A stretch of 30,631 nt of DNA from a virus (IMGVR_UViG_3300045988_175865:118001-148631); one strand, 5' to 3'; shown: positions 3,457 to 30,631, counted from the first letter of the stretch. Notes: generated by a model from the sequence alone, not told the origin. Numbers and translations: made by a program.

Positions 3457-3467
3457 AATTATTTACA

Positions 3468-4121: not shown

Positions 4122-4122
4122 T

Positions 4123-4545: not shown

Positions 4546-5108
4546 TATATATACATATATTTCCAAATGGAAAAAGGTATGTAGGGTTAACAACTCAAGA
4601 TGTTGATTCTAGATGAAGAAATGGGGAGGGATACAAACATCAGTTTGTTTATAAACCAATTAAAAAATACGGATGAAATAATATTAAACATATTATATAT
4701 TACGTAAACAATGAAACAGAAATGAAATATCTTGAAAAATACTTATTTGGTTACTATAATACTACTGATTTAAGATATGGGTATAATCGAACTGATGCTA
4801 ATAATCATCCGATATTTTCTGAAAAAACTAAAAATATTATGTCTGAACTTGCTAAAACTCGAATTGGAAATAAGAATCCATTTTATGGCAAGCATCATTC
4901 ATATGAAACTAAAAATAAAATAAGTATTAAAAATCAAAATATTAAAAATAAGCCAATTGCCCAGTATGATTTAGATGGCAATTTTATCAAATCCTATAAA
5001 AGCATACGATCCGCTTCTAGAGAACTGAGTATTGGCAGTGGTTTAATATGAGCAGTTTTGGCAGGAAGACAGTATCAAACTCATAAATTTATTTTTAAAT
5101 ATTTGTAA
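4530..5108 (+). CDS. GIY-YIG homing endonuclease (192 aa)
   Basis: KYIVYIHIFPNGKRYVGLT, DSR-W-RNGEGY, KKYG-W-NNIKH, NUMOD3-like repeats (TRIGNKNPFYGKHHS), C-terminal PIAQYDLDGNFIKSYKSI module. Three in-frame TGA; TAA at 5106-5108. Confidence 0.9.
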
Positions 5109-5764
5109 TGGAAAACAAATTAAAATGATTCGGACAGGTACTTGATTGAGTTAATAAATACGGGTTATGACAGATTATAAAAGGCGGATTTGCATTTATA
5201 TTTGTATCTTATGTCTTTATAATCTCTCTAAATCCAGGCATTATATATGATAAGGTTGCTACTTACATAGAAAATGTCCATAACGTTAAGCAAGTAATCA
5301 GACAAGATGCAGACATCAAAATACGTTACATCTTGAAAGATTTAAGAGTATCTACAAATGCAGATAGAGCTTGAGTTATTGAGTACCATAACGGTACATC
5401 TGGATTAGGAGGACTTCCATTTACATACGGAATTATGAACAATGAAGAATTAGAAGAAGGAGTATGTTCAGTATCTAGACATTATAGAGACTTCTTGTTA
5501 TCTGAGTATTTGTTTATTTTGGAGACTTCTAAACAAGGTGGATGAATAGGTAGTGTTGAGGATATAAAACAGTATGATACAAAAATGTATTATTCATTTA
5601 AATCTAATGGTGTTAATAAATTAGCTTTATTTTATTTAAAATCGGAATACAGAGATATTGGAGTAGTCGGCCTTTCATATTGTGATAATGAGATGCCAGA
5701 AGATACTTGAGTTAAATTAAGAGATGCAGGAATAAAGATAAGCATAATTTTAAATAAAAAGTAA
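5108..5764 (+). CDS. Membrane-anchored protein of unknown function (218 aa), first gene of the lysis cassette
   Basis: ATG overlaps the preceding stop (TAATG). Codon-by-codon reading is open to TAA 5762-5764, with six TGA (5126, 5147, 5168, 5372, 5543, 5708) and no TGG. N-terminal hydrophobic stretch GGFAFIFVSYVFIISL. The standard-code ORF track shows no ORF here at all. Confidence 0.7.
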
Positions 5765-7084: not shown

Positions 7085-7116
7085 CAAATATAATAATTAT
7101 ATTTTAATTTTCCAAA
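7085..7116 (-). promoter_or_regulatory. Bacteroidota-type promoter (TTTGGAAA, 20 nt, TATATTTG) directly upstream of gene 6914-7081
   Basis: The reverse complement of 7085-7116 is TTTG-gaaaattaaaatataattat-TATATTTG. This is the same -33/-7 architecture and 20-nt spacer as the three promoters at 8990-9191. Confidence 0.55.
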
Positions 7117-8831
7117 TTAAATACGAATTTTTTATTTAAAATTACATAACCTTCTACTTGTTTACCTTCAATTCTTTTTTGGCACTTTTTAACGTCGTAG
7201 TATTTGTCAATCTCAGTAGCTTTAGGAGCTGTAGTAATTCCTGCAACAGTATAAGCATCTTTTATATACTTCTTAATATCTGCATTAGAATATCACATTC
7301 CAAGGCTTAAATGCTCATTTAATTTCTTTGCAGCTTTGTTATCTGTAGATTTATTAGAAGCTTTGAGTAATTCATCTTTAATTGCGCTAATGCAATACTT
7401 TAAACTTGCCATTTTCTCAAATCCGAGCTTTGTAATAGCATCCATTAACCAAGGATATTTAATCTTAGCATTATCTAAGATAGGAGTTGCAAATCTATAT
7501 TTTACTTCCCATTCAGCTCTAACATCTTTAATAAGCTCTTTAAATGGTTTGGTATCTGAATCAAAGTCAATCTTAATTGAATTATCCTCGCATTCTACAA
7601 CCTTTTTAAAGCCATTCTTTAAATACTCATTATTAAGATTAGTTCTAATTGAATATAAACCTCTTGTAACCTTGAAGTTAAATATATCGACTTTAGCCAT
7701 ATTAGGATCAAACGTAAAGGTATAATCATCATTTACTTGAATATAAGTATCACTGGTAAACTCTTTAAGTTTCTTTCTTGCAACTTCTGGCATTGCATTA
7801 TAAGCCTCAACTGCAATTTTAGTCTCTTCGATATTCTGGAGATTCTTCTTTCTAAAATCCTCATAAGATACCTCAGCGTATCTTGTTGCAGAATATAAGT
7901 GAGTAATCCAATTTAAATACTTACTATTTCTAATTCTACCAGCAATCTGCTGAATTGAAGTTGAAATATCAAGTAATGTCTGAGCTTTCTGAGCATCCGA
8001 AACTACTACAATACGTCCATTTTCATCATAAATATCAGAACCTTCAAATACTGTAGAAGTTAATAAGTTGATCTTTTTAGGTTCATCTAATACAGTAGAG
8101 TTCTTAATTGTAAGTTTAGTCTTGTTATTCTTTGAATAGATAACTCTTGTATTTGATTCATTTAATTTAGCCTTCTGAATAAGGTTCTTTATAAAGTCAA
8201 CTGAGTTAACAAAGATATATACATTACCTTCAACTTGATTATTTAAAACTGCAGTTATAAGTTTAATAGTTGAAGCCTCAACATTCTTACATTTAACAGC
8301 CTGAACTTTAGTCTCTATAACATCATCCCATTCTTGTTTTACTAATGGAAGATCTTTTAATTCATCAAGTACAAACTCTTCTTCAAGTGGAGTTGCAGTC
8401 ATAAAAGTATACTCTTTAAAGAGCTTATAGTTATCAAGTACAGGTTTAATAGCATCCTTTCTAAAGCTATACTGATTAAAAAGAATATGATATTCATCTA
8501 CTAATAAACTATAATCTTTAGGATTAACTGCTGAAATAACTTTTGGTAAAGAGTTATAAGTAACAATGATTTTAGGGCAATTAACTCGTTTTACATAATC
8601 TTTAATCTCTGCAATAGTTACTCCAGCAAATACACCGAAGATCTCTTCTGTACGTCTTTCATTAGGATACTGTTGAATCTTGTTCTCAACTAAACTGGTA
8701 AAAGGAACACAAATAACATAAGGCTTGTTACATTCAATAGCCATAGAAGTTCCACCACAACCAACTTTTCCTTTGTCAAATAAGCAGTTAGTAGGTAATT
8801 CATTGATTAAATTATTTAAATAAGTTTTCAT
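7104..8831 (-). CDS. SF2 (DEAD/DEAH-like) helicase, 575 aa including a 62-aa extension past an in-frame TGA
   Basis: Track ORF 7293-8831 carries LLVDEYH (motif II), MTATP (motif III) and QQIAGRIRN (motif VI). Motif I is atypical (GKVGCGGTS). The frame stays open through TGA (complement of 7293-7295) for 62 more codons, to the TAA complement at 7104-7106. Confidence 0.75.
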
Positions 8832-8989: not shown

Positions 8990-9021
8990 CAAAGATAATA
9001 CATAAAATTTCAATTTCCAAA
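8990..9021 (-). promoter_or_regulatory. Leftward promoter P-L1 (TTTGGAAA, 20 nt, TATCTTTG)
   Basis: The reverse complement reads TTTG-gaaattgaaattttatgtat-TATCTTTG, matching the Bacteroidota -33 TTTG / -7 TAnnTTTG consensus. About 150 nt upstream of the helicase ATG. Confidence 0.6.
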
Positions 9022-9078
9022 TAATTTTGCAATTATTTTTAATAAATTTTTTATTTATTATCTCTTACTTTCATAGTA

Positions 9079-9110
9079 CAAATATACAACATTATTTTTA
9101 AATCTCCAAA
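9079..9110 (-). promoter_or_regulatory. Leftward promoter P-L2 (TTTGGAGA, 20 nt, TATATTTG)
   Basis: The reverse complement reads TTTG-gagatttaaaaataatgttg-TATATTTG. It is a tandem copy of the P-L1 module, 89 bp further upstream. Confidence 0.55.
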
Positions 9111-9159
9111 TATTTTTATGAAAATAATTTAAATTTTTTTGAAAAAAGTTGTTAAAAAA

Positions 9160-9191
9160 TTTGGAGATTGGATAAAAATGTATTATCTTTG
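9160..9191 (+). promoter_or_regulatory. Rightward early promoter P-R (TTTGGAGA, 20 nt, TATCTTTG)
   Basis: TTTG-gagattggataaaaatgtat-TATCTTTG lies about 45 nt upstream of ATG 9237. It shares the 16-mer ATGTATTATCTTTGTA with P-L1 in inverted orientation. Confidence 0.6.
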
Positions 9192-10886: not shown

Positions 10887-11115
10887 TATTGACGATTTAC
10901 TTACTGAGTATGAAATAGACTATAGTATGTTTACAAATATGGATGATAGACTATTAAGTATATATCCAAAATGACTTGAGCTTAATAAGGCAGATAAGAC
11001 AGTAATCATATTATATGCTAAATATCACAGTTATAGAGAAGTGGGAAAAATATTGGGAATTAGTCATACTACAATTCAAAGATTTATTAAACAAATAAGA
11101 GAGAGATTATGTTAG
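10870..11115 (+). CDS. Sigma-70 region-4-like helix-turn-helix protein (81 aa)
   Basis: LNKADKTVIILYAKYHSYREVGKILGISHTTIQRFIKQIRERL resembles sigma region 4.2 / LuxR-type HTH. It is a separate frame, with TAA immediately before its ATG. TGA at 10972 is in frame. Confidence 0.45.
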
Positions 11116-12224: not shown

Positions 12225-13455
12225 AGGATATAGCCCATTTATCTATCAATTAAAGGTACATACTGCTTTAGAGCACTCTTATAGGTCTGGAAAAATATTT
12301 ACTGTAAAAGCAAAGAGACAATGTGGTAAATCCTTTATGGCAGAAAATGAACTATTACGATTTTCAATTAACTATCCTGGAAGTATTAGCTGTATTGTTG
12401 AACCAACTCTTACTAACTCCAGAAAGATATTTAAAGAGTTAGTAAAGGCATTAGATGGCACAGATATTATTAAGAAAAAGAATGAATCTTTGCTTGAGAT
12501 TGAATTTACTAATGGGAGTGAAATACTATTTAAATCTGCTGAGCAAAAAGATTCATTACGAGGATTTACAGTTAGTGGAATATTAGTAATTGACGAAGCA
12601 GCTTATATATCAGATGAAGTATACGAAATTTTAACACCTATAGCTGATGTATGAAATGCTCCAATACTTATAATTAGTACTCCAAGGTTTAGAGAAGGAT
12701 TCTTTTATGAATGCTTTAAAAAGGGCTTTGATGGTAATTTTAGTAAATATTATCAATCCTTTGATTGAGCATTAGAAGATACTTCTATGCTGTTAAGTGA
12801 GGATAAACTTGAAATGTATCGCCTTACAACCTCCAAAAATAAATTTAGAACTGAATATCTTGGAGAGTTTGCAGATGATGATGGTTGCCTATTTAATAAT
12901 ATAGCTAACTGTATAATTGATAAAAAACCTGAATATCATAATCTTTATATTGGAGTTGACTGGGCTACTGGAAGTGGTAAAGACTATACTTGTGTTACTG
13001 CTTTAAATGAATCTGGGCAAATGGTCTTTATAAAGTATTTTAACGATAAAACTCCAACAGAACAAGTTGATTTACTGACAAATATATTCACTGAGTATCA
13101 AGGATTTATAAAGATAGTTCAAGTCGAACAAAACTCAATAGGTTCAGTGTTTTATGATATTCTTGTAAAAAGGAATCCTAAATTACGGATAGTTAAGTTT
13201 TTAACTACTAATAAGTCTAAGGCAGCTATTGTAAATAAGCTACAAGCGGCATTAGAAAACGAAAAGATTGGTATTTTAAAGGATGATAAACTATTAAATG
13301 AATTAAGACTATATGAAGCCAGTTACAATCCGAGAACTGGAAATGTAACATATAACGCACCATCTGGATTTAATGACGATACAGTAATTAGTCTTATGTT
13401 GGCATACGACTCTTTAAATAATACTAAAGGTAAATATAACTTAAAATTTAAATAA
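12208..13455 (+). CDS. Terminase large subunit (415 aa)
   Basis: Walker A-like KAKRQCGKS, Walker B ILVIDEAAY, and a C-terminal nuclease-like half (IGVDWATGSGKDYT ... FNDDTVISL). Track ORFs 12172-12654 and 12787-13455 are in the same frame, joined through TGA 12652 and 12766. Confidence 0.9.
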
Positions 13456-14274: not shown

Positions 14275-14293
14275 GTTACAAAAAAACTTGACA
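14275..14293 (+). promoter_or_regulatory. Conserved motif variant GTTACAAAAAAACTTGACA, copy 2 of 4
   Basis: Shares AAAAAACTTGACA with 1314-1326 and 23239-23251. Lies between stop 14241 and ATG 14333. Confidence 0.5.
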
Positions 14294-14824: not shown

Positions 14825-17011
14825 ATGGCAGAATTAACACCTTCAAAGTTAGGAATTAACTCTACAGGTACTTTTAAGGTTTATTATAGTGCTGGTCAAA
14901 TGGCAACTAATGGTACTTATGATAACCTTTATTTATATCCAGAAGTTGCAGGTTTAAGTGGAACTATTACAGATCAAACGACTTCTGGCTGTACTATTAA
15001 CATTACTAATACCGCAGCTATTACTAAAGATCAAACAGTTACTTGTTCATTCTCAGTAAATAATAACATTACAAAACCTGTAATTGTAAATTTCCCAATA
15101 AGACTGCATAAAGATGCAGCAGGATTTTATCCAGATACAAGAACAATAACTGTACCAAATACAGGAGGAAGTTATACAGTAACTTTCCAAACTAACTACG
15201 CAAATATTAAAAAATGAGATGTATCTGTTACAAGCGCAGACGCATTAGCAACAGTTACAGTATTAGATTTTGATTCATCTTATGTTAAATTTAAAATAGA
15301 TGTTTCTGAAAATACGGAATGAACAGAAGATTTAACTAGAAGTATTGGTATAATTGTAACTAATACTAGTAATAGACGCTTTAGTTGAAAATACTCATTT
15401 ACAATTGCTAAATCAGACACACCTTCAGATTTAAATTTAATAGTTACTCCAGCTTCTGCAAATTATGATGCTGCTTCAATAGTTACAAATAAATTTTATT
15501 TAACTACTACAAAAACGGAAGAGACTATTTCATCATTTAATGTTGTATGTAGTCAAGCAAGTGATATATTAAATAATACTGAAGATAAGTCTTTTATTTT
15601 AACTTTACCTGAAAACGATACAGTAAATGATTTATCGTTTGATGCATCAGTAACTGCACAAACATCTGGAGGATATACAATTAAAGCAACAGTACCTATC
15701 ACTCAAAGTAAAACATACTTGACTTTACCTGTTACAAATTATGATATAAGTTATTCTCAAAGTACATTAACTATTAATGGATTAAGTTCAAATAATATTA
15801 GTGCTAGTGATGTAGTATTTGCAATTCCAGAAGATGCACAATCTTGAATCAGCTCTCCTAAATTTACATATAATAATGGAAACGCAATAATTACTTTTAA
15901 TGTTACTGAAAATACTAGTTTATCAAGAAGAAATACTACAATCGGCATATCTGTAGTTAAAGACAGTAGTAGTATTATTAACTTATCTATAAATGTAAAT
16001 CAAGCTGTTAAATCAGATATAGCTCCAATTTGGAAAGATTATATTTGGGCTGAGGAAACCTTAGACGACTTTATAGAGTATCATTTAGATGATGGAGGAA
16101 CTACAATTTATGCTGGTAAAGCATATAAGTATCCAGGTGCAGATAGAGTAGAGTTCTTGTTAAATAGTGTAACTGAGAATTATCTATCTAATGGAATATC
16201 ATTCCCAACTACATTAAGTACAAGCATTATGCCTAATTACTTGAAAGACTTTACTTTAGTAACCTCAACTGGAAATGAGAAGCCAATTATATTCTTTAAT
16301 GACTGGTCTTATAAAGATACAGATTTAACAAGTGGATATTTCTTGAGTGATCCAATTACTGGCTTAATTGACCCAAGACAATATGTAATGACAAGTTGGT
16401 TGTTACCTACTGGAGAAGGTTTAGTTAATAGATTCTATTATAAAGACGGAATTCAAACTACAACAGATGTTACTTTAAAGAGTGGTATTAATGGCTATAC
16501 ATTTGTTGAGAATATAACTAATCTGCAATTAGGTTGTGGAGATTATATAGTTATAGCATTTGTAGTTTCTGGAACTATTAGCCAAAAACAAATTAAATAT
16601 ACAATAGATAATACTGGAAAAGATTATGTTCTGTATTATGTAAATGCAGCTGGAGGATGGGATTCATTGTTAATTGAAGGAAATGTTAAGAAGACTGATG
16701 AGTTTGAATCTGAAAGCTATATAAAACGAGTATTGAGACCCTCAACAGAGTTTGCAAGAAATAAATACCTGAATACTATTACTTCCAGTTGGACTTTATA
16801 TACAGGCTATTTAAATGATGAACAAGCATCTAAAATGTATAATCTGTTAGAATCTACTCAAGTATATTTACATAACCTTAAAGATAATACAATTACTCCA
16901 GTACTGATTACAGATACAAGTTGTGAGTATAAGACTTATACAAATCAAGGTAAAAACAAGTTCTATTATACAATTAATGTAGAAGCTTCTCAAGATACTT
17001 ATCGTAAATAA
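14825..17011 (+). CDS. Large tail/baseplate structural protein with N-terminal BACON/Ig-like repeats (728 aa)
   Basis: Codon-by-codon check shows track ORFs 14825-15217 and 16157-17011 are in one frame, open through TGA at 15215, 15320, 15386 and 15845. Repeats such as W-ISSPKFTYNNGNAIITFNVTENTSLSRRNTTIGISV are BACON-like. Confidence 0.75.
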
Positions 17012-17013
17012 TT

Positions 17014-20000
17014 ATGAGAAAGAATATTAAATTATTTATTGCAAATAAAGAGGTTGACTGTAGTGAGGGAATTAGTCTTCCTATGACATATACTGTTGAG
17101 GATTTCCAAAACCCCACTATAGTCAAGAACTCGTTTAGTAAAACGATTTCTATACCTGACACAAAGAATAATAATAAGATTTTTGGAGAGATTTATAAGT
17201 TAGATAGATTTCTCCATATAAAAGAAGGTAATTTCTCTGGCGTATATTTTGATCCTTCAAAAAGAGTTGACTTTGGAATCTATAATAATGGATATTTAGT
17301 TGAATCAGGATATATGCAGTTAAATAGCATCTCTATAAAGCAAGCAGTTATTACTTATAATATTACTTTATATGGAGGATTGGGAGATTTCTTTTATGGA
17401 CTTAAATATAAAGAAGATGGCACTATTAGAACTCTAGCTGATTTACAATACTTTGTAACTGATGAGGATGGTAATGTACTTCCTACCGATACTGAAATGA
17501 ATTTCCACATTAATAAAGATTTTGTAAATACTTGTTTTAATTGGAGTAAAGTAAATGACGGAAGTCAAATTTATGATTTTTTAACATTTATTCCTGCATA
17601 TAACGGTTTATATGAAAACTTTGATAATGAAACTTGTTTAATAAATACTAATGGAGATAATTTATTTCCTACTAGTAAGACCGATTCAGGAACTACATAC
17701 ACACCTTATAATGGATATGGATTAGCTAAATTAAATAGAGCATATACAGAATGGGAGATGAGAGATCTTAGAAGTTATATGCAAAGGCCAGCATTAAAAT
17801 TAAGTAAGTTAATAGAAACTATATGTAGAAAAGAGAATTCTGGATATGATGTGATATTTGATGATAGTTTCTTTAATTATTCAAATCCATATTGAAATAA
17901 AGCGTTTGTTGCATTATCTTTATTAGGATCTACTGAAGATGAAGAATCAGATAATATTACAGAGAATGCTAAACTTACTAAATATAATGATTTGTTTTGG
18001 TGTGGATTAAAACCTGGAGGAACAACTACTTCAGTAAACTGGGGTAGATTTAGTGTTACAGGGAGTGATGTAATAGTTCCTGGGGAAGGCCAAGTAATTG
18101 ATTTATCTGCAACTCCTGCTAATACTCTTGTTAATATTAATGTTGATTTTCAGCTATTTTATAATGCAAATGTTTCAGCAGGTAATGATTTATATTTATC
18201 TTATGTAAGGAACGGAAGAGCTGGAAATACAGATTATAGGAATGATCCTTACAGAACATCAGTAACAGCACAGATATTGATATATGATGCTGAAGATACT
18301 TCATCTCCTAGTAGACCTATAGCATACTCTCCTTTATATAACTTTACAAATAAGATAAACACTCAAGTTCAATCAGGACCTGGAACTTGGTTTAAGTATT
18401 ATCCATTAACTGATGCGCCTGTAGAAGCTATTTTTGGTCACTTTGTAAAAGATAGTGGAAATAGGTATTATTTTAAAAGTGATAATAATACTAATACTTT
18501 CAGATTTACTGTAAAAGATATGCCTAAAGTTAATAAGATTTTAGTGAATATACAAATTGCAAGAAGAACTGAGAGTTTATACAATCAAGATGCAGTATGA
18601 CAATCAGATAATATGCATCCTAATAATGTCACAGCAAATAGAGTTGCTGGATGGTCAGAATTTTTATATGATGAAACTCAATATACATTAAAAGCTTCTT
18701 GGCCTTCAGCAGTTACTTCTGATGCTTTAATTACTAAGCAGAAATTATTAAAGACAGAACAATCTCCTGTTGATTACTTATTAAGTTATGCAAAACTATT
18801 TGGATTGTATTTTACAAAAGATATTGATAGTAAAACAATTAGAATATATACTAGAAATAATTTCTTTAAGAATATAATCTCTGATTGGAGTAAAAGGATT
18901 GATTATTCTAAAGACTTCAATGTAAATCCAATATTATTTGATAAGAAGTGATATACTATGTCATTAGAAACTCCAGAAACATATTATGCCAAGAAATATG
19001 ATAGACAATATGATATAGATTATGGTCAGCAAAGATTAAACACTGGATATAATTTTAATAGTGATAATACTGATTTATATTCTGGAAATATATTTCAAAA
19101 TGTAGTATCAGCAAGAGATGCAGATAAGTATTTTAGAAATTTCTTTAATTCTGGAAATACTTATGTACCCGCATTTATGAATGATAATATTACATATAGT
19201 TTATTTAATAGAACTTCTACAGAAGTAAAGACTAATGATCAGGATTTATATGGAGCTAATTTTATAGACCAAGGTAAGACTACAGAATGGTGGGATGTTC
19301 CTGGAAATGATATATTTGCAAAAACTTGTTTTTATACATTAGATAATAATGAACAAAGTCTTGAAGAGATAAAAAGTACTTTATTATTTTATAATGATGA
19401 TGTTAATATGAAAGATATAAATGGTAATCCTATTTATTATTGGATTACTGATGATGTTACAGAAATGTCAGTTCTTAATGATGGAGAACCTTGTTATATC
19501 TATACTAATAGTGAAAATAATTCTGCAGGACAAAAAATAGCTATTAGAAGAAACATATTACCACAATTTATAAGATACACTATTTCTAGTAATTTTATAT
19601 CTTCATCTTGAGATTTTGGGGTTCCAAGAGAAATATACATTGATAAAGTTAGTTATTTAGAACAATCTACTTTATATAGTAGATTCTGGAGTGAATTTTA
19701 TAATGATCAATTTGATGTAAATACTAAAAAAGTTACCTGCTTTGTAAGATTGGATGATTTAGATGTTAAGTATGATTTACTTAGACAGTTCTATTATTTT
19801 GAAGATTCTTACTGGATACTTAATAAGATTGATGCTTATGATATTAATTCAGATTCTACAGTTAGATGCGAATTTATTAAAGTTCAAGATATTAATAGTT
19901 ATTTAGCTGGAGTTCAAAATCTAGGTGAATATATATCATTTGATGATTCAGATCCAGTTGTAGATTATAAAGCTGGGACTAAAAAGATTACAGTTACTTC

Positions 20001-20454
20001 TAATATTCCTTGAGAATTAGGATGATATAGTCCAAATGAAATTGTAAGCATTACACCTGAATCTGGGCAGCCTGGAGAAACAGAATTGACAGTTACATAT
20101 AATGAGAATACTACATATGACCAAAGGAGTTTCTATTTTAGTCTTTATAAACAAGGAAGTATAAATGGCCCTCAATGTATGTTTACTCAAACTCCAGACC
20201 CAAATAAAGCTATTCTTATTACAGGAAAACTTCAAACTTCTACTGGAGGTATTCCTTCTGGCGTTAATCAGATTCTAACTGAAAATGATAATTTCTTAAA
20301 TGTCACTTATATGAGAGATGATGGAAGTTATAGAATATATGCTCAAAATGGAGTTCAATTTTTATTTAGAGTATCTGACGGACCAACAGGAACAATTAAA
20401 TATACAGAGAATTTAACACTAACAGAAGATACTGTTAAAAATATTACAATCTAA
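17014..20454 (+). CDS. Very large tail-tip/host-recognition protein (1146 aa) with a C-terminal BACON-like domain
   Basis: Six track ORFs (17014, 17992, 18613, 18958, 19750, 20086) share one frame, joined only by TGA at 17893, 18598, 18949, 19609, 20011 and 20023. The C-terminus reads W-YSPNEIVSITPESGQPGETELTVTYNENTTYDQRSFYF. TAA at 20452-20454. Confidence 0.8.
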
Positions 20455-23135
20455 TGGCACAAACAGAAATTAAAAAGGTTATTAGTATTGATACTAAGTC
20501 AAGTAATAAGTCAATAAACTCTTTAAAGAAAGATATTGATGCATTAACTAATTCGCTGAATGATTTAGAGATTGGTACTAAGGAATATAATGAAACTCTT
20601 TCATTACTTGGTAAGAGACAATCAGAATTCAATAAAATTAATGAGCAGATAGCAAGATCTTCAAGAACTACTGCTCAAAGGTTTGAAAGTGTAGCTAAAA
20701 TATCCACTGGTTTGGCCAGTGGATATGGAGCTGCAACAGCTGCCATTACTTTATTTGGGAAAGAATCTGAGGATTTAAATAAAGTAATGGTTAAGTTACA
20801 ATCTACTATTACTTTAGTTCAAGGTGTGGGAGGTATAAAAGATTTATTAGAAGAATTGCCTACTTTAGGTAATTGGTTTAAGAAATTAACTGATTTTATC
20901 TCTCCATTTAATACAGGGTTGAATAATGCTGCCAAAAATCTTAATCAGATTGATGCATCTAAGCTTAATGGCATTGGCACATCTGTTGGTAATGTTGGAA
21001 CTGAATTAGGTAATATCTCTAAAGTAGTCAAGGATTTAGAAGGCACCAATATTAATTTTAAAGGAGGTATGATTCAAGGAGTAATGGGCACTCCTGCTGA
21101 AATATCTGCTACTAATAAGAGTGTATCTAAGACGATTCCGATTATAGGTAAATTAAATGATAGTACTAAAAAAGCTCGTAATAGTATAGCTGTAATCAAT
21201 GAACAATTAGAAAGACTAAAAAGAAATTCTCCTGGGATAGCTGCAGTTCTTAATAAACAAGCTGAAGCATCTAATGCAGCTGCTAAAGGTGCTGCAGAAT
21301 TAGCTTCTGGAGTAGGTAAGGTTAAAACTGCACTTAAAACTATTGGTAATGTAACTGTATGAATTGCATTAGCTACAGCTATTGGATTAGCTATTAATAA
21401 GATAATAGAGTATATATCCTCAATAAAATCAGCTGAAAAGGAGGCTGCTGAATTTAGAAAGTCTATTACAGATACTACTAATCAGATTGCTTCTAAATCT
21501 ATAGCTATCTTTAGAGAGTTACAAATAGCTTACGAAAGGGTTGGAGATTCTGCAGATGCTAAGCGTAAGTTTATAGAGCAATATTCAGATAAGATTAAAG
21601 AGACTGGCTTAAATATCACTGATGTAAAGACTGCAGAAGATGCGTTTGTAAATAATACTGGTAATTATGTAGAAGCATTAACTGCAAGAGCAAAAGCTCA
21701 GGCTATTGAACAGGCTGCAATTAAGCTTTATGAGGAGTATTTAAACAAACGTACTGAACTGGAGAATCAAATTTCTGATACAAGCTTTGGAGAGGCATCT
21801 GCTTGGCAGGCTTTTAAAGCTACAGCAATGTTCTGAAAAGATTATTCTAATACTATTTATGAGTACACTAAGAAAAATAAAGAGAATACTTATAAACAGT
21901 TGGATGATTTAAATAAAGACATTGAGAAAAGGCTTAAAAAGCTATTTGAGGATGTAGCAGATACTAATAAAAAGTATGGTGAATTCTTTAATATTCCAAC
22001 TATTACAAAGAACACTACTGAAGCTAAGAAGGTAATTAATGAATTTGATGAATGGCTTCAAAAGAGATTAGAGGATAAAGATCCAGTAGATGAACTTGAA
22101 GATGAATATATTAGACTATTAGCATTAGCTATTAAGTATAATAGGGGAATTGAAGAGGTAGAAGCTTGGCATCAGGAAGAACTTAAAAAGATTAGAGATA
22201 AAGCTAGAGCTGATGAAGAAGCTAAGCGTAAAGCAGATGCAGATAAAGCTTGGAATGATCTACAGTCTGAATTAAAAAGGATTAGAGATTTATCTTCTAC
22301 AAGTAATTTGAGAGAGCCAAGAGAGCAGACCTTTCAGACTACTTATACTCAAGGTATATCGAAAGCATTTGGATTGGCTGGAGATTATGAAGGGACTGGT
22401 TATAAATTTACATATCAGAGTAGAGAGGACTTAGAGAATCAATACAATGCTCAAATTGAATACAATAACAACTTACTCTCATTAACTCAAGGTAGAATAG
22501 AGCAAGAGAATGCCTTATTAAGTCAGCAATTAATGAATGAACAATTAACTGCTGAACAAAAAGAGGAAATTCAAAGAACTCTTACTGAGAATAATATGGC
22601 CTTATCAGATGCTCAATTAGCTAATGAACAGGCAAATACTCAGGCTTATCAAAATCTTCAAAAAGCAAGGCAGCAAGCTTTACAGGGAACTTTATCTGTA
22701 GCTTCAAGCATTGCAGGAAGTATGGCAAGTATTTGGGGAGAGGAAAGTAAAGTAGGTAAAGGATTTGCTACTGCTCAAGCATTAATTGACACTTATTCAG
22801 CAGCAAATAGCGCATACTCTGCTATGGCAGGAATTCCTATTGTAGGTCCTGCTTTAGGTATTGCTGCAGCTGCAGCCGCAGTAGTTGCAGGTATTGCAAA
22901 TGTTAAAAAGATTTGAGAAGTAGATGAATCAGGTGCAAGTGGAGTGAGTGGAGCATCTGCAGCAGTGGCAGCACCAGCTGCTTTAAATACAGCTCCTGTA
23001 GAATATACTCGGAACTTACTTGGAGATAAAGAAACAGACCAACTTAACAATCCAATTAAATGTTATGTTGTTGAATCTGACATTACAAATGCACAGACTA
23101 AAGTGGCAGTTACTGAGTCTAATGCAAGTTTCTAA
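20454..23135 (+). CDS. Tape measure protein (893 aa)
   Basis: Track ORFs 20454, 21900 and 22944 are in the same frame, joined through TGA 21360, 21834 and 22914. Long coiled-coil regions, Gly/Ala-rich hydrophobic segments (GIPIVGPALGIAAAAAAVVAGI). Its ATG overlaps the preceding stop (TAATG). Confidence 0.8.
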
Positions 23136-23136
23136 A

Positions 23137-23154
23137 GTGAGTAAATTATTGACA
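23137..23154 (+). promoter_or_regulatory. Conserved motif variant GTGAGTAAATTATTGACA, copy 3 of 4
   Basis: Begins 2 nt after the tape-measure stop. Same GTGAGTAAA ... TTGACA ends as the 19-mer. Confidence 0.5.
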
Positions 23155-23232
23155 GCCTACTATGTAAGTTACTGTAAATCAGTGCTTATATAGTAGTGCA
23201 ATGTCAAAATTTTATTTATCTTAGATACCTGT

Positions 23233-23274
23233 GTGAGTAAAAAACTTGACAGTTATATTCTATATAAATATAAT
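23233..23274 (+). promoter_or_regulatory. Conserved 19-mer GTGAGTAAAAAACTTGACA, copy 4 of 4, here followed by 17 nt and TATAAT
   Basis: Exact copy of 1308-1326. TTGACA at 23246-23251, a 17-nt spacer, then TATAAT at 23269-23274. About 60 nt upstream of the capsid module ATG at 23333. Confidence 0.6.
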
Positions 23275-23332
23275 TTATTAAAAGATTGTAAAAAATATTA
23301 CATTTTTCTAACTAACTATATATTAATAAAAA

Positions 23333-23926
23333 ATGGAAAATATGTATAACGAACTGCCACTATATCAAGCAGTAATAACTGACGATTTTGATGGCATAGA
23401 ATATGTAGCTTTAACATCAAAGCCAGCTACTCAAGTAAACTGGGTTGCATTTAATAACTCTTTGAAATTCTCTATGGATGAAGATCAACATCTTGTGACT
23501 TCTTGTTTAATGGTATGTGATATGCCAATTTTTAGACGAGATGACAATTTGGGAGAATATTATATCCAATATGATAAAGAGACTTTAAGAGCAATGGCTG
23601 AGAAGATGATGAGGGATAAGAGAACTGATGCTGTTAATATAGAGCATTTAGAAGATTCTTCGATTCCTGGAATTGTACTACAAGAACTTTACATTAAAGA
23701 TGAGAAAAGAGGAATTTCTCCAATAGAATTCAAAGATGTGCCTGACGGTTCTTTATTTGTAACTTACAAAATAAATAATCCTATTATTTGGGATGCTATT
23801 AAAGCTGGAAAGTTCAAAGGCTTCTCTATTGAAGGCTTATTTACTTTAGAACGTAAGAGTGATGAATATACAGAACTTAAAGAGATACAAAGAATGTTGA
23901 AGAAGATAAAACGAATTAAAAAGTAA
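23333..23926 (+). CDS. Putative prohead protease, XkdF-like (197 aa)
   Basis: Sits directly before the scaffold and capsid genes. NIEHLEDSSIPGIVLQELYIKD ... IIWDAIKAGKFKGFSIEG resembles XkdF/S78_2-type phage proteases by eye. No TGA. Confidence 0.55.
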   Translation: MENMYNELPLYQAVITDDFDGIEYVALTSKPATQVNWVAFNNSLKFSMDEDQHLVTSCLMVCDMPIFRRDDNLGEYYIQYDKETLRAMAEKMMRDKRTDAVNIEHLEDSSIPGIVLQELYIKDEKRGISPIEFKDVPDGSLFVTYKINNPIIWDAIKAGKFKGFSIEGLFTLERKSDEYTELKEIQRMLKKIKRIKK

Positions 23927-23929
23927 ACT

Positions 23930-24541
23930 ATGAGCAAATTCACTAAAATCAAATTAGAGCTTGCCAGAATGTTGGCAAAATTCAGTGATCTGAAAACTTC
24001 AAATGGGGTCTTAACTTGGGATTCTGACGAAGATCTTAAAGCTGGAATGGATGTTTATGTAATGGATGAGAATGGCGAATACGCTCCTGCTGCTGATGGT
24101 GATTATGTTACCGAAGATGGTAAAACTATCGTAGTTAAGGAAGGTCGCGTTGAATCAATTACTGATCCTAAAGCTGAAGTAGATCCAGAGGAAGGAATGA
24201 AAACTGTTGAGGTAGCTGCTGCTTGCGGAACTAAGAAAGTAAACGCTGCTGAGGAAGAAGTTGCAGATCCTATGGTTCAAACCGATGGTGTTAAAGAAAG
24301 TGAAACTGATGCCATTGATGCAATTCATAGAGAGATTAATGAGCTTTATGACATTGTAGACAAACTTACAAAGAAGGTTGCCGAGCTTGAAGCAAAAGGA
24401 ACTGAAACAAAAGAGACTGTTGAGAAAATGAGCAAAATGAGTGCTGCTTTCTCTGCAGAAGAAGAGATTGAAACAAAGCGTACTACTCCTACAAGTGGCA
24501 ATGCAGAAATAGATAGAAAGCTTAAAAACTTTATTGGTTAA
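23930..24541 (+). CDS. Putative scaffolding protein (203 aa)
   Basis: Acidic, with a coiled-coil segment (REINELYDIVDKLTKKVAELEAKG). Lies between the protease and the major capsid gene. No TGA. Confidence 0.5.
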   Translation: MSKFTKIKLELARMLAKFSDLKTSNGVLTWDSDEDLKAGMDVYVMDENGEYAPAADGDYVTEDGKTIVVKEGRVESITDPKAEVDPEEGMKTVEVAAACGTKKVNAAEEEVADPMVQTDGVKESETDAIDAIHREINELYDIVDKLTKKVAELEAKGTETKETVEKMSKMSAAFSAEEEIETKRTTPTSGNAEIDRKLKNFIG

Positions 24542-24562
24542 TAATTTAAAAATTAATAATTT

Positions 24563-25462
24563 ATGAATCCTGTAATGACTTCTTTGACTGCTTATGTTGA
24601 GCAGCGTAGATTACCTCTTATTAAAGAGGCTGTATTAAAAGCTAAGAGTGCTAGTTTATTTAACTTACAGACTGATATTAAAACTTCAGCTGCTCTTAAC
24701 TTACTTTCAACTGATGTTGAATTTGGAGATGGTCTGACTTGTGGATGGGATGAGGCTGGAACGCAGACTCTTTCACAACGAGTTCTTACGACTGGAAATA
24801 TAAAGATTAATATGGCTTATTGCGACAAAGCTATGCTTAAATATTGGACTCAGTATCAGGTTCGCGTTGCTGCTGGTCAGAAAACGCTTCCTTTCGAAGA
24901 GGACTTTATTAGTGGTGTAGTTGAGAATGTTAAAGCCGCTATTGAAACCGCTATCTGGCAAGGTGATACTAGTTCTGGTACGAACAACCTTAAATATTTC
25001 GATGGTCTGTTAAAGATCTTAAAAGATGCTGCTGGTACTGTTGATGTAACGATTACTGGTACTTCTGCTTACGATGACATTATGGCTGTTTATAACGCTA
25101 TTCCTGAGAAAGTACTTGATGGTGCTTCTATCTTAGTAGGTGCTGATACCTTCCGTAAATTCGTCCAGGAGTTAGTTGCTAAGAACTACTTCCATTATAG
25201 TGGTGAGAATCTTAATGGTGAGATTATGCTTCCTGGTTCGCAGGTTAAAGTAATCGCTGTTAATGGTCTTAACGGAACTGACAAGATCGTTGCTGGTCAG
25301 CTTGATAAGAACTTCTTCTATGGCTGCGATATGATGAACGACGAAGAGAAATTCGAAATGTGGTATTCGCAGGATTTCAGAGAATTTAGATTAGCTATTG
25401 AATTTAACGCTGGTGTACAGGTTGCATTCCCAGATGAGATCGTACTTGGTGTAAAAGCTTAA
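24563..25462 (+). CDS. Major capsid protein, HK97 fold (299 aa)
   Basis: Size, position, and motifs typical of Phage_capsid proteins (AIWQGD, YFDGLL, ...FRLAIEFNAGVQV). Codon usage is visibly shifted to GCT/GGT/CGT/CAG. Four Trp, all TGG. Confidence 0.85.
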   Translation: MNPVMTSLTAYVEQRRLPLIKEAVLKAKSASLFNLQTDIKTSAALNLLSTDVEFGDGLTCGWDEAGTQTLSQRVLTTGNIKINMAYCDKAMLKYWTQYQVRVAAGQKTLPFEEDFISGVVENVKAAIETAIWQGDTSSGTNNLKYFDGLLKILKDAAGTVDVTITGTSAYDDIMAVYNAIPEKVLDGASILVGADTFRKFVQELVAKNYFHYSGENLNGEIMLPGSQVKVIAVNGLNGTDKIVAGQLDKNFFYGCDMMNDEEKFEMWYSQDFREFRLAIEFNAGVQVAFPDEIVLGVKA

Positions 25463-25505
25463 ATAATAGATAATCAGTAATTTATAACTAAAATAATCTG
25501 AACAT

Positions 25506-26273
25506 ATGAACCGAATTGGGAACGTTTATATAATTACAAATACTATAAATAACAAAGTTTACATAGGTCAAACTATAAGAAATATAAGACAAAGATTTAG
25601 TGAGCATATGTCTCTTCATCAGAGAGGCAATGCTCATCTAAAATCTGCAGTATTAAAATACGGTAAAGAATCTTTTAATATAGAGGTATTAAAGACTTTA
25701 GAGACTAATAATGAAGATGAACTCTTTAAGTTTCTAGATAAATGGGAAAAGTACTATATAAAGAAGTATAAGTCTTATGATTCTGAGTTTGGCTATAATA
25801 TTGATTTTGGAGGTCAATTAAATAGAGTGGTATCTGATGAATCTAGAAAAAAGATAAGTGAATCACATAAAGGTGTTAAGTTATCTCTTGAGAGAATAGA
25901 AAAGCAGAGAGAATATATGAAGAATCATCCAGAAAGATGGATTGATCCTATACATAATATAGGTAAACAACTTTCTGAGGGACATAAACGCAAAATATCT
26001 GAAGCTCAAAAAGGAGAGAAGAAAAATATGTGAGGGAAACATCATAGTGATGCTACCAAAGAAAAACTTAGTAAAAGTGTCAGTGCTGCTATGATTAATA
26101 AGTATGGTAAACCAGTATTGCAGTATTCATTAGATGGAGAATTTATTAAAGAATGGAATTGTATAATGAATGCAGCTAAATCATTTAATAGTAAGCGTTC
26201 TCATATTCCAGATGTATGTAATGGTAAAAGATCTTCTTGTTTTGGTTATAAATGAAAGTGGAAATACGAATAA
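25506..26273 (+). CDS. GIY-YIG homing endonuclease (255 aa) inserted between the capsid and tail-tube genes
   Basis: GNVYIITNTINNKVYIGQT (GIY-YIG), LKYGKESFNIEVL, repeated NUMOD3-like SESHKG / SEGHKRKISEAQKG, C-terminal KPVLQYSLDGEFIKEW...FGYK-W-KWKYE. TGA at 26031 and 26253; TAA at 26271-26273. Confidence 0.9.
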
Positions 26274-26294
26274 TTAATAAAGTTTAATAAATAT

Positions 26295-26813
26295 ATGGCT
26301 TGCTTAATAACGCTTAATGGAATTACACTTGATTGCCAGCCTTCGTTAGGTGGTATCAAACGAGTTTGGATTACTCAATATTCAGATGTAAAATCTGTAG
26401 TTGTAGGTGATGACAATATGATTGAAAGTATCACTTTAGAGGGTGAAGCTCAATGGTATGAGTATCAGTTCCGTAAGGCTACTGGTTCTTTAACTTCAAC
26501 TCTGAATGTTGACGAATCCGCAGGAGTTAACTATGTAAGTAATGAGTTAGCTCTTGTATTTACAAAGATGGAAACTGCTAAGAGAATTGAAATTGCAGCT
26601 TTATCGATCGGTCAGCTTGCAGTTGTTGTTGAGGATAGTAATGGTCATTACTGGTTCCTTGGTAAAGATGATTATGTAAGCGCTTCCGCTGGTACGGGTG
26701 TTACTGGTACTGCAAAAGGTGATCAGAATGCTTATACTCTGACTCTCTCTACTGATTCGGATTCTTATCCTTATGAGTTGTCAGCAGAAGCTATTGCTGC
26801 AATAGTTGGATAA
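26295..26813 (+). CDS. Major tail (tube) protein (172 aa)
   Basis: Size, position, and a pattern typical of siphovirus tube proteins (GGIKRVWITQYSDV ... AVVVEDSNGHYWFLGKDD ... DQNAYTLTLS). No TGA. Followed by a strong terminator. Confidence 0.65.
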   Translation: MACLITLNGITLDCQPSLGGIKRVWITQYSDVKSVVVGDDNMIESITLEGEAQWYEYQFRKATGSLTSTLNVDESAGVNYVSNELALVFTKMETAKRIEIAALSIGQLAVVVEDSNGHYWFLGKDDYVSASAGTGVTGTAKGDQNAYTLTLSTDSDSYPYELSAEAIAAIVG

Positions 26814-26820
26814 TCAGATT

Positions 26821-26859
26821 AAGAGCGGGTAATTAATTTTACTCGCTCTTATTTTGTTT
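26821..26859 (+). terminator. Rho-independent terminator after the tail-tube gene
   Basis: AAGAGCGGGTAA / TTACTCGCTCTT forms a 12-bp stem with one G-U pair and loop TTAATT, followed by ATTTTGTTT. Confidence 0.75.
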
Positions 26860-26888
26860 ATAGACATTAATAATAAAAATTATATAAT

Positions 26889-29800
26889 ATGGAAAATCTA
26901 TTACCCTATTTAAATGTACTTGAGGCAGACACTATTACAAGGGATAATGTAAACAAAGCCTTAGTAATAGATAAAGATGATAATATAGCTCTTTTAAATG
27001 GAGAAGATTTAGGAACTAATAATTATCAAGATCTGCAAAATAAGCCAGAAATAAACGGAGTATCTTTAAATGGAAATCTTACTGCAAGTGAGTTAGGATT
27101 AGCATCTACTAGCAATATACCTACTAAAACTAGTCAATTGACTAATGATAGTGGGTATATTACTAGCTTAGATGGATATGCTACAGAGGAATGAGTAAAT
27201 AGTCAAGGATTTGCTACTAATGAATCTGTTACTGAAGGTTTAGCTGAAAAACAAGATAAATTAGTTAAAGGTAATGGAATCAATATATCTGGAAATACTA
27301 TATCTGCTGATTATAGTTCAATAGATAATAAGCCATCTTTAAATGGTAAGACTTTAGAAGTCTCAACGAACATAGTTCCAGCAATACAGGTTCAAGCAAT
27401 ACCTACTAAATTGACTATTACTCCATCTTTAGGTAATCAAACTGGACAAGCAGTTGAACTTCCTGGATATGATACAAATACTAATGCTTCTGGTATTTTA
27501 ACATCTCAAGTATTTGGTATTCTTAATGATAAGTATACTAAAGAAGAAATAGACAATATTAACAGTGCGATTAATACAGCTATTTCTAAAAAACAAGATA
27601 AATTAACAGCAGGAGCTAATATACGAATTGTAGATAACGTTATATCTGCATTTAATAATCATTTATTCTTACATTTAGATGAAAATGATACAGAACATCA
27701 GGCTTATGTATATTCTTTTATTAAGTCTAATTTAGAGTTCTATTTATTTGCTGAGATCACTTACGAAGGCAAAGTAGTAGTTCTTCCTTTAGTTGCTATT
27801 GAAAACAACGAATCGTTAGATTTAAAAGGAATGTATCTTAAAGATGATTCTACAATCGTTGAGGTATCTGCAGTTTTAGTAGCTAATGGTAATATGACTG
27901 TTAAAGTTACTGAGGTTGATCTTACTAATAAAGTATATACTAAAGAAGAAGTAGATGCCAAACTTGAGGAAAAACAAGGAGTATTTGCTCCACAAGCTCC
28001 ATTAGCTTTTAATGAAGATAAATCCCAATTATCTGTAGATTTATCTGGATACCAACCAGTTGGTGATTATGCTTTAAAGAGTGATATTCCAACTAAAGTT
28101 AGTGAGCTTACTAATGATTCTAACTTTGTAACTGAAACAGAGGTTTCTGGAGATTTAGCAGGTAAAGCAGATAAGACTTATGTTGATGAGCAGCTTGCTA
28201 CTAAACAGCCTGTAGGAGATTATGCAACAAAAACAGAACTTGCTGGTAAAGCTGATTCTTCTGTGGTAGAATCTTTATCTACTCAAGTAGCAACTAATAC
28301 TTCAGATATATCAATTATTAAAACAAAACAAGAAGAAGATGGAGATAAGATTGATTCTCTTGATAAAGAGATGGCTACCAAACAGGATACTCTTGTTAGT
28401 GGAGAATCAATTAGAACAATTAACAATCTTTCTTTATTAGGGGAAGGTAATATTAATGTAGGCGATGTTCCTTCTATTACAGTAGAAAATGAACAAATAC
28501 CAAATGAGACAGATTTTAATAGAGTTGCAGAAGCTGCGGCAAATAATAGAGCTGTTTTAATTAGAATTAAAACTACTGAAATGACGTTAACCTCTAATTA
28601 TTGACAGTATACCTCTTCAGAATCTCAGAGAGGCTTTGTTGCTTATGCAACATATTTATCAGAAACTAATAACATAACTCTGACGGCACATATTATAGAA
28701 AATCAACCAGTTATGGTAGAAACTTATGATAAAGAATTACAAGAAGAGTTAGTTTCTGGGACTAATATTAAAACTATTAATGGTACTGCTATACTAGGAT
28801 CAGGTAATATAGACACTCCAGATAGTAAGGTTACTAGTGCTGCTAATCACTATACTCCTGTTGGAGGAAGTGCTACATCTGGAACTATTATAAATTCTAT
28901 TACTAAGGATGAGAAAGGACATATTATAGATATAGGGGTTGCTAATGGTATAGATGCTGGTAAAATTACCTCGGGAGTTATTGATATTGAGAGATTGCCT
29001 AAGGGAGCACTGGAGCGTTTAGTAATAGTTGCAAATAAAGCAGCAAGACTAGCTTTAACCACTGAACAAGTACAAGAAGGCGATACTGTTAAAGAGAAAG
29101 ATACAGGTGTAATGTATTTTGTTATTGATTCTTCTAAATTAAATAGTGAAGATGGCTACTCTATTTATACAGCAGGAGCAGCATCTAGTGTGCCTTGGTC
29201 AGGAGTGACAGGTAAACCTGATTTAGTTAACTCGGTTAAGTTAGTACTGCCAAGTTCCATATTCATTAATTCTGAAAGTACACTTACAGGAAATGCAGAA
29301 TTAGGATCATCTTTAAGTACACAAAACGCTAATACAGTATGAGCAGCTCCAAGTGGCACATCTGGGGTACCAACATTTAGGAAATTAACTTTCCTAGATA
29401 TGAATACAGTAACGTCAGATAAATTTAACTATATACCCCAGACATTTAAAGGAGGAAGGCTAGTAATTAATTATAAAAACTCTGCTGGGGGTCAAAATAC
29501 TGACAACACTATAACAGAATACCAATTTGGAGATGGGGCCAGTAATCTTACATACATAACAGCAAAAGGTTTTAAAACTTCGGAAAATAATGGACACAGG
29601 GTACTATGTTCAAATGGATCTTCCAAATTATTGTATGGACCATCAACTCCTGGAACAGCAGGACAAGTATTAATTTCAAATGGGTCATCAACTCCTGAAT
29701 GGGGAAAAGTACCTATAACTAGTATAGGAGGACCTACTGTTGATACTGCGACTTCTAATACTGTACCATATGGAATTACTTCATATATTGGGGAGTACCG

Positions 29801-30631
29801 TTCTGATAAATTAGCGTTTATAAAGAGCACTGATTTATATGGAGAAATAAGTAAAAACAACGGAGAATTGTGAACTGAAGATCCTAAGGGGAGTAGTAGA
29901 CTTATAAGTTTATTTACTTCACAAGATAATAAGTATGGTCTACAATTAATAGATACAGAAGATGTTAGCACAACCACTCAATATAGACTTACTATAAATA
30001 ATAGTGACAGGTATTGTACTATTGATTGAATATATATATATATGTCTACTAACGGCTCTGGTTATAATTGCTTTATAGAAGCATATAATCCTAGTTCTGA
30101 ATCTTGAGATATAATATCTCAGGATGCTGTTTTACAGGGGTGATCGGGACCTAATTTTAGAGCTTTGACATCTTCTATATATTATAACAATTCCCCAAGT
30201 ACAGCTTCTCAATATTCGAAACTAAGGTTTACATTTTCAACTAGAAGTGTTAGTGAGAACTATAGTGGACAATTGACAGTCTATAGAATTTCTGGATATG
30301 GTACTTATGGCTGGAGAATGCCTAACAATATGTCTAAAGTAGGTCAAATATATTCTTGGGATAATGCTCAAAATGTTTCTTTTCCAGGAAGTGTATCGGC
30401 TTGAAAATTTATCAGTAATGGGGGTACTAGTACTAATGTAACAATGGGAGATGGATCTCTAAAAGATCTTAAAACTAAACAACTAGTTGTAAACGGTACT
30501 ATAAATAATTTTTATTCATCAGATAGTGTTGAGGTTAGACTTTACGCTCCTACTTCAGGTGGTACTAGTGGGCAGATTCTTGTATCTAATGGTAATAATG
30601 CTCCTAACTGAGCATCCTTAGATAGTTTAGG
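26889..30631 (+). CDS. Tail fibre protein (1293 aa in the circular genome; cut by the window end, true stop equals 922-924)
   Basis: Track ORFs 26889, 27411, 28713, 29400 and 30165 are all in one frame, separated only by TGA (27192, 28602, 29340, 29871 and five more). Repeated fibre modules: TKTSQLTNDSGYIT / TKVSELTNDSNFVT, QPVGDYA, LVSGTNIKTINGTAILGSGNI / LVSGESIRTINNLSLLGEGNI, GTAGQVLISNGSSTPEW. Confidence 0.85.
29847..30631. repeat. Second copy of the terminal assembly overlap (equals 1-785)
   Basis: See 1-785. Confidence 0.95.

Follow-up and report, generated by a model that had tools for sequence, protein, structure and literature searches.

Why do the capsid, scaffold and tail-tube genes of a phage that reads TGA as tryptophan (Trp) encode every Trp with TGG? 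The question is raised by IMGVR_UViG_3300045988_175865:118001-148631, a stretch of 30,631 nucleotides, the whole of which is here called the window. An initial annotation, made from the sequence alone, had described the use of TGA and TGG in this DNA as bimodal, with a protease, a scaffold, a major capsid and a tail-tube gene lying between 23333 and 26813 and free of TGA. The window was shown to hold the complete, ~30-kb genome of a tailed gut phage. This genome is 29,846 bp long, has 30% G+C, and is circular or terminally redundant, the last 785 bases of the window (29847-30631) being an exact direct repeat of the first 785 (1-785). The tail fibre gene crosses the circular junction, and six of its nine TGA codons occur twice in the window; the duplicated 785-bp end was removed before all codon counts in the window.

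Tryptophan codons in the genome and among its relatives

When TGA was taken as a sense codon, coverage by open reading frames (ORFs) of at least 100 amino acids (aa) rose from 0.74 under table 11 to 0.92 under table 4, and pieces in the same frame were joined into ORFs of 1146, 893 and 1293 codons, each interrupted by three to nine in-frame TGAs. All 36 gene models end with TAA (31) or TAG (5), and none with TGA. In comparison with all standard-code loci, Trp was the best-aligned residue at seven of 26 TGA sites and Gly at none, the remaining sites being aligned with Tyr, Phe, Leu, Ile, Met or Val among others. In comparison with the standard-code relative L030/L140 (IMGVR_UViG_3300029905_000019; hereafter L030) alone, Trp was found at seven of 23 aligned sites and Gly again at none. 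Some of the Trp-matching sites are supplied by the C-terminal motifs of GIY-YIG and HNH endonucleases. Because the aligned residues in standard-code relatives include Trp and never Gly, TGA is taken to mean Trp, and its reading as Gly was ruled out. The genome thus has the in-frame TGA, the alignment with Trp and the lack of TGA stops of TGA-as-Trp recoded phages (table 4), and not a phage-encoded UCA suppressor tRNA. No tRNA gene was detected in the window by ARAGORN or, at E up to 5, by Rfam, and none was found across 40 related loci. Scans of the uncharacterised early genes with PHROG and Pfam gave no release factor, synthetase or tRNA-modifying function, and no integrase could be recognised in the phage.

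Over the 36 genes we counted 57 TGA and 70 TGG codons, TGA making up 45% of Trp codons and being used in 61% of the genes. The protease (23333..23926; TGA/TGG, 0/2), scaffold (23930..24541; 0/1), capsid (24563..25462; 0/4) and tube (26295..26813; 0/3) genes together hold no TGA and 10 TGG, against 57 TGA and 60 TGG in the other genes (Fisher test, nominal p = 0.002), and the TGA/TGG ratio is heterogeneous across genes (permutation p = 0.007). The recount agreed with the initial annotation for these four genes, and also where it had given six TGA and no TGG for gene 5108-5764 (6/0), nine TGA for the fibre (9/4), six for gene 17014 (6/13) and two to four for the endonucleases (4, 3, 2 and 2). 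The longest run of TGG along the genome is nine (P = 0.21), and the best contiguous block of at most five genes reaches a family-wise P of 0.08 when corrected for the post-hoc choice of genes. TGA trinucleotides out of frame are not depleted in the TGA-free genes, and therefore composition is not the cause of TGA absence. Along the genome, TGA usage is a gradient and not two modes. Of the proposed bimodality, the TGA-free capsid, scaffold and tube thus stood, whereas the two modes and the membership of the protease did not. As to position within genes, no overall difference between TGA and TGG was observed (p = 0.65). TGA is in excess in the final fifth, to which the Trp motif conserved at the C terminus of the endonucleases contributes. 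The most TGA-rich stretch is 2859-5708, in which ~17 of 18 consecutive Trp codons are TGA, and which covers two endonucleases, two small head-side genes and gene 5108.

Relatives were collected by a viral-contig scan, which gave a close clade of gut phages of ~30 kb and many distant ones; clade counts were made from unique sequences of ~36 relatives. In the clade, TGA/TGG was 0/141 for the capsid, 0/23 for the scaffold and 1/89 for the tube gene. The protease gave 4/41 (8/53 in an earlier set of relatives), the portal 13/100, and the head-side genes 3468-4121 and 4123-4545 gave 10/76 and 1/17. For gene 14825 the ratio was 35/103, for the tape-measure-like gene 68/104, for gene 17014 211/294, for gene 5108 47/52 and for the fibre 13/2, while matches to the HNH endonuclease in the earlier set totalled 32 TGA and no TGG. 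The share of TGA in the clade is thus 25-47% for tail and lysis genes and 87% for the fibre. Since the pattern is replicated in relatives, we count it as real: it is clade-wide, and strongest in the capsid, tube and scaffold genes. Trp counts alone might account for the absence of TGA in the window, given its family-wise P, whereas the relatives reproduce it. The protease falls outside the TGA-free class, with ordinary codon usage and TGA in some relatives. The two small head-side genes are part of the TGA-rich stretch of the window, yet are TGA-poor in relatives.

Changes at individual sites point in the same direction. In the capsid gene tree, 40 A/G changes took place over 45 conserved Lys/Glu/Gln columns (~0.9 per column), and none over the four conserved Trp columns; for portal and tail genes the rate at Trp columns is about that at the Lys/Glu/Gln control columns. 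Trp sites common with L030 are encoded by seven TGA and 10 TGG outside the capsid block, and by no TGA and seven TGG inside it. Because the Lys/Glu/Gln columns of the capsid gene flip while its Trp columns do not, we take TGG in the capsid block to reflect selection and not a shortage of time for flips. In L031 and L138, which represent more distant recoded lineages, the capsid genes are also TGA-free.

L030 itself, with 67% capsid-protein identity and 28% G+C, has no TGA at all, either in frame or as a stop (16 TAA and 3 TAG stops), and looks like the proposed TGA-free intermediate on the way to recoding. As two lineages further off also have the recoded TGA, recoding is patchy in the phage family.

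Codon usage of the capsid block and the probable cost of TGA

The initial annotation had also remarked that codon choice in the four genes is richer in GCT, GGT, CGT and CAG than elsewhere, and the enrichment could be measured for all four codons: GCT 0.73 against 0.48 in the rest, GGT 0.60 against 0.29, CGT 0.21 against 0.07, and CAG 0.58 against 0.28. Significant enrichment was further observed for TTC (0.61 against 0.19), AAC (0.41 against 0.17) and ATC (0.21 against 0.07), but not for TAC (0.18 against 0.14); CTT and ACT are likewise enriched. A codon index was then formed from the preferred C-ending and T-ending codons, with Trp excluded. Its value is 0.59 for the capsid gene, the strongest bias in the genome, 0.48 for the tube and 0.44 for the scaffold, and does not exceed 0.32 for any other gene, the protease being at 0.26; it is negatively correlated with the fraction of TGA (Spearman −0.46, p = 0.006). 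The capsid index is above the background of its own locus in L030, L031, L038, L048, L055, L056, L076, L067 and L036, and the tube index likewise in 9 of 9; this elevation holds in standard-code relatives of very different G+C. Because standard-code relatives show it too, the contrast between capsid and rest would be an expression-linked property of the family and not a sign of foreign origin. Comparison with relatives using table 11 therefore leaves the distinct composition of the block in place, and speaks against a mosaic origin.

Selected codon usage bias is a known property of highly expressed genes (Ikemura; Sharp et al. 2005). The present case resembles it in the C-ending Phe, Asn and Ile codons and the T-ending Ala, Gly, Arg and Thr codons of presumably abundant proteins, and in that the shift is kept in relatives whatever their genetic code, abundance being judged here from roles in the virion. 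It differs in that the disfavoured codon is a reassigned stop and the effect is near absolute instead of a modest shift, and its cost probably includes premature termination and not only slow decoding.

Two further observations suggest that reading TGA as Trp carries a cost. Outside the capsid block, the other purine-ending codon pairs are 74% A-ending, whereas TGA makes up 49% of Trp codons. TGA falls below the A-ending expectation of ~74% in almost all genes, and clade-wide only the fibre and most endonucleases approach it, which suggests graded selection against TGA throughout the genome. The context of the codon was also biased. Among distinct contexts in the window and the clade loci, the next base after sense TGA is T in 10.7%, against 21.9% after TGG (p = 0.001); in 12 other NNA/NNG pairs T follows the A-ending codon in ~18-33%, so that TGA is the lowest. 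True stops, in contrast, have T as the next base in 21 of 36 genes (58%). Poole, Brown and Tate reportedly found in 1995 that termination in E. coli is strongest when a stop codon is followed by U. As sense TGA avoids this strong termination context, the bias suggests that sense TGAs are still contested by a release factor.

The best reading of these results, and one in which we place moderate confidence, is that decoding of TGA is costly and that selection purges TGA according to the demand for each protein. The decoding tRNA would compete with release factor 2 in a standard-code, probably Bacteroidota, host, and each TGA would cost yield and leave some chains truncated. The strength of selection against TGA would then follow the amount of protein needed and the harm done to assembly by truncated subunits. 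If the genes are identified correctly, the capsid, scaffold and tube proteins should, as in phages generally, be present in hundreds of copies per virion, and under such selection their genes would keep TGG at every Trp. Low-copy tail, fibre and lysis genes and selfish endonuclease genes would instead drift to the A-rich mutational equilibrium and gain TGA. Of the three explanations in the initial annotation, it is this one, inefficient decoding of TGA and its avoidance by abundant proteins, that is best supported, by the codon bias, the lack of Trp flips in the capsid gene, the deficit of TGA and the avoidance of a following T.

Several points weigh against this reading. The single window, being marginal in its statistics, is insufficient to establish the TGA-free pattern. 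The Lys, Glu and Gln codons of the capsid gene are 65% G-ending, with seven of 21 columns fixed on G, so that a preference for TGG is not fully separable from a general one, and tests using the Lys/Glu/Gln columns as proxies give only p ~0.03-0.04. The capsid gene of L135, a more distant recoded relative, has one TGA. The portal gene and genes 3468-4121 and 4123-4545 are TGA-poor in relatives (6-12%) with neither codon adaptation nor high copy number, and therefore abundance is not the sole factor; assembly of the head may, in addition, be sensitive to truncated parts. Moreover, the identifications of the tube and the scaffold are weak.

Probable host, capsid operon and rival explanations

The host bears on how TGA could be decoded. 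A Shine-Dalgarno site is absent in 33 of the 36 genes, and Bacteroidota genes lack Shine-Dalgarno pairing. Putative early promoters of the form TTTGGAnA-N20-TAnnTTTG are located at 8990-9021, 9079-9110 and 7085-7116 on the minus strand and at 9160-9191 on the plus strand, three of the copies making up a divergent early promoter region (8990..9191, both strands). Each faces its gene, from within this divergent intergenic region or from immediately ahead of an early gene read leftward; position and orientation are kept in L091 and L092. The motif is like the Bacteroides-type promoter that Bayley and colleagues are said to have described in 2000. The composite TTTG-N17-23-TAnnTTTG occurs in four copies, each with a 20-nt spacer and a TTTGGA start. 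Because the count by itself is not significant (4 observed, 1.9 expected), the argument for a Bacteroidota-type promoter draws on placement and regular spacing. When bacterial genomes were scanned, no more than two remote homologues of the capsid protein came up, each on a short contig of a Bacteroidota metagenome-assembled genome, and the capsid protein had no match among GenBank phage records. An endolysin that is a peptidoglycan peptidase (5927-6376, Peptidase_M15_3, Pfam E = 5e-17) implies a walled host, and the early promoters together with the absence of Shine-Dalgarno sites make a standard-code Bacteroidota host likely. Decoding of TGA as Trp is so far known from Mycoplasmatales, a small number of reduced symbionts and two genera of Eggerthellaceae only, and from no Bacteroidota.

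The capsid block would form its own transcription unit, from promoter to terminator. The predicted promoter (23235..23274, plus strand) combines the motif GAGTAAAAAACTTGACA (23235-23251) with TTGACA-17-TATAAT; the latter, the sole perfect one in the genome, lies embedded in that motif at 23246-23274. Most close relatives keep the −35 part and the motif upstream of the protease gene, whereas the −10 hexamer is perfect only in the two closest. A non-Bacteroidota host had been considered from this perfect sigma-70-type promoter, and was dropped when the conserved part proved to be a phage-specific repeated motif. Other copies of GAGTAAAAAACTTGACA are located at 1310-1326 (exact) and 14277-14293 (three mismatches), so that the motif precedes the portal-to-lysis, capsid and tail gene blocks and is a candidate phage-specific late promoter; weaker copies lie near 23137-23155 and 8900. 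Because it also heads the TGA-containing tail and portal-to-lysis operons, the capsid operon probably has the same timing as these late operons. The operon is closed by a strong predicted intrinsic terminator (26820..26851, plus strand; a 13-bp stem followed by a T run), and a hairpin with a different stem sequence follows the tube gene in all relatives checked, including L030.

The genes of this operon, all on the plus strand, were identified with unequal strength. The prohead protease belongs to Peptidase_S78_2 (XkdF type; Pfam E = 3.4e-10), and a single-protein scan with it gave three loci only. The major capsid protein matches PHROG 11320, 1623 and 10, and weakly Pfam Phage_capsid; neither the protein nor its profile had a sequence match to solved structures. 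The putative scaffold, acidic and coiled-coil, was assigned from position and composition. The gene at 26295-26813 is a probable tail tube (major tail) protein by its AlphaFold model (pLDDT 68), for which the best Foldseek matches are tail-tube proteins (lambda 8k36, Milano 8fop, GTA 6toa; probability 0.84-0.98, E = 0.007-0.03), with the Mu tail tube also among them, all at weak scores. Between capsid and tube lies a GIY-YIG homing endonuclease (25506..26273; Pfam GIY-YIG and NUMOD3), which has ordinary codon usage and 2 TGA to 4 TGG although inside the block.

One rival explanation makes TGA a gate: tail, lysis, packaging and endonuclease genes would stay untranslated up to a late switch of code, with the capsid translatable before or independently of it. 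The published model of recoded phages, which reports strongly recoded lysis-cassette membrane proteins and intron endonucleases, agrees with it, and so does gene 5108, which directly precedes the holin-like gene and the endolysin and has three of its six TGAs by codon 21. The endonucleases are rich in TGA as well, three of the four encoding every Trp with it in the window, and the leftward early operon is TGA-free in relatives. On the other hand, our scans gave no component of a switch, be it tRNA, release factor or synthetase, the promoter motif is common to the capsid and the TGA-containing operons, the second gene of the rightward early operon also carries TGA, and neither the optimal-codon bias nor the graded depletion is predicted. 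The gate, also put forward in the initial annotation, may fit gene 5108 and the endonucleases and leaves the capsid unexplained; as a general account it seems to us improbable. A further candidate is that TGA sets protein dosage like a rheostat, the phage itself supplying nothing to decode it. If a standard-code Bacteroidota host read TGA through only in part, for instance with a tRNA-Trp(CCA) variant whose anticodon stem has 4 bp, yield would fall geometrically with each TGA. The counts fit such a scale, with none in capsid, scaffold and tube, two each in the portal (1806-2870) and the large terminase (12208-13455), both recognisable, three to six in the large tail genes and nine in the fibre, and with TGA for every Trp in three of the four endonucleases. 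One of the genomes listed as having both tRNA-Trp(CCA) variants is that of Bacteroides oleiciplenus (PMC13092985). We give this candidate little weight; if it were true, virion stoichiometry and the restraint of lysis and of selfish genes would be set at translation termination.

It could also be that there is no TGA-specific selection, and that a few ancient conserved Trp residues together with a general preference for G-ending or optimal codons produce the pattern, the host perhaps decoding TGA natively. The G-ending bias and fixed columns of the capsid Lys, Glu and Gln codons would favour this, as would the facts that all Trp residues of the capsid gene are common to the standard-code relative and that the window-only statistics are marginal. 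Clade counts of 0/141 and 1/89, however, are far more extreme than those of other purine-ending pairs in the same genes, TGA lies under the mutational expectation genome-wide, and sense TGA specifically avoids a following T. Ancestral Trp sites elsewhere are already 41% TGA, and no native TGA-as-Trp host with peptidoglycan, Bacteroidota-type promoters and no Shine-Dalgarno sites is known. We consider this explanation, too, unlikely. Least probable of all, to a degree that makes it hardly tenable, is recent acquisition of the capsid module from a standard-code relative, with TGA not yet accumulated. It was suggested by the initial annotation, and the G+C of the block (0.38-0.39 against 0.30), its distinct codon usage, the existence of standard-code relatives as close as L030 in the capsid, and recombination of fibre regions between otherwise identical genomes could all be cited for it. 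The capsid gene is TGA-free in all sampled members of the recoded clade, however, so that the transfer would predate a clade with near-saturated synonymous sites; the distant L031 and L138 are TGA-free in this gene as well, and the same codon contrast is seen in standard-code relatives. Nor is the capsid closer to L030 than other genes are: divergence from L030 relative to that within the clade is higher, not lower, for capsid and tube.

Other genes and relation to known recoded phages

Among the genes that do carry TGA, the three large tail genes on the plus strand, assigned from size and position (14825-17011, 17014-20454 and the tape-measure-like 20454-23135), have TGA/TGG of 4/6, 6/13 and 3/6, and 25-42% TGA in relatives. 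The fibre (26889..30631, continuing across the junction to 924, plus strand), of which the identical gene in L085 carries Phage_tail_C, is near the neutral expectation. Gene 5108 (5108..5764, plus strand) is predicted to encode a membrane protein; its TGAs at codons 7, 14 and 21 show heptad spacing, and L091 has all six at the same places. A DEYH-box P-loop protein of the leftward early operon (7104..8831, minus strand; Pfam helicase match below threshold), a putative helicase, has 1 TGA to 4 TGG in the window and 0/5 in L091 and L092. Because L091 and L092 have the same 575-aa ORF free of TGA, its TGA at codon 513 (position 7295), the only one in that operon, counts as sense and not, as table 11 would have it, as the true stop.

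The four homing endonucleases, three GIY-YIG and one HNH, are located at 2863-3456, 4530-5108, 10091-10585 and 25506-26273. The last was matched in only eight of 32 relative loci, at ~37% identity, and the presence of endonucleases appears to vary among relatives. The fragment 6418-6585 is a possible endonuclease remnant. At 10578-11115 two small genes overlap, the second with matches to Sigma70 region 4 and a helix-turn-helix and the first with no family match; the pair might encode a phage sigma factor, split or frameshifted, that serves the late motif. One further locus, L083 (ENA ERZ28596505 scaffold_39, 193,455 bp), carries the tube gene and is identical to 16295-30631 of the window (14.3 kb); precisely where the window stops, it turns to different phage-like genes, likewise with TGA. 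The scaffold probably strings related phages together through their fibre region, as a chimera, and is uninformative on the host.

Ivanova and colleagues are said to have described, in 2014, alternatively coded phages that read TGA as Trp. Such phages are now known from the gut (Yutin et al. 2021, PMC7886860; Borges et al., bioRxiv 10.1101/2021.08.26.457843). With them the present phage has in common the low G+C, in-frame TGA aligned with Trp, the lack of TGA stops, close relatives using the standard code or free of any TGA, the concentration of recoded codons in lysis-associated and homing endonuclease genes, and early genes largely without the recoded codon. A suppressor tRNA, present in 15-35% of alternatively coded phages in published surveys, was not detected here, as in the other 65-85%. 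It is in the capsid that the difference lies: published recoded phages have recoded structural genes including the capsid, which was itself used as evidence of recoding, whereas here capsid, scaffold and tube are exempt clade-wide. The avoidance reported earlier concerned integrases, while this phage has none that is recognisable, and capsids are not mentioned in the Borges preprint (bioRxiv 10.1101/2021.08.26.457843). Within the limits of our literature search, we did not find the exemption of capsid, scaffold and tube described, and its novelty is modest; the finding refines known stop-codon recoding in phages and is not a new system.

Phages whose hosts natively read TGA as sense, namely those of Mycoplasma and Spiroplasma (TGA as Trp) and of Absconditabacteria and Gracilibacteria (TGA as Gly), likewise have in-frame TGA with no phage tRNA, and low G+C. 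They differ from the present phage, with its peptidoglycan peptidase and Bacteroidota-type early promoters. In Mycoplasmatales phages the host lacks a wall and TGA dominates among Trp codons; here an M15_3 endolysin and a TGA share of 45% were found. On TGA-as-Gly hosts (table 25), ~90% of phage genes carry in-frame TGA, against 61% here, where no TGA is aligned with Gly.

Recoded phages are usually described as recoding structural and lysis genes as a timing device; the most-needed proteins of this clade show the opposite. The graded depletion of TGA would offer a readout, from sequence only, of the cost of a reassigned stop codon, and suggests that many recoded phages lacking a tRNA live with incomplete suppression in standard-code hosts. 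It bears on how a change of code is enacted and on how recoding evolves from TGA-free relatives, as well as on the handling by annotation pipelines of genomes with mixed-looking codes, and it gives a simple prediction for other recoded clades.

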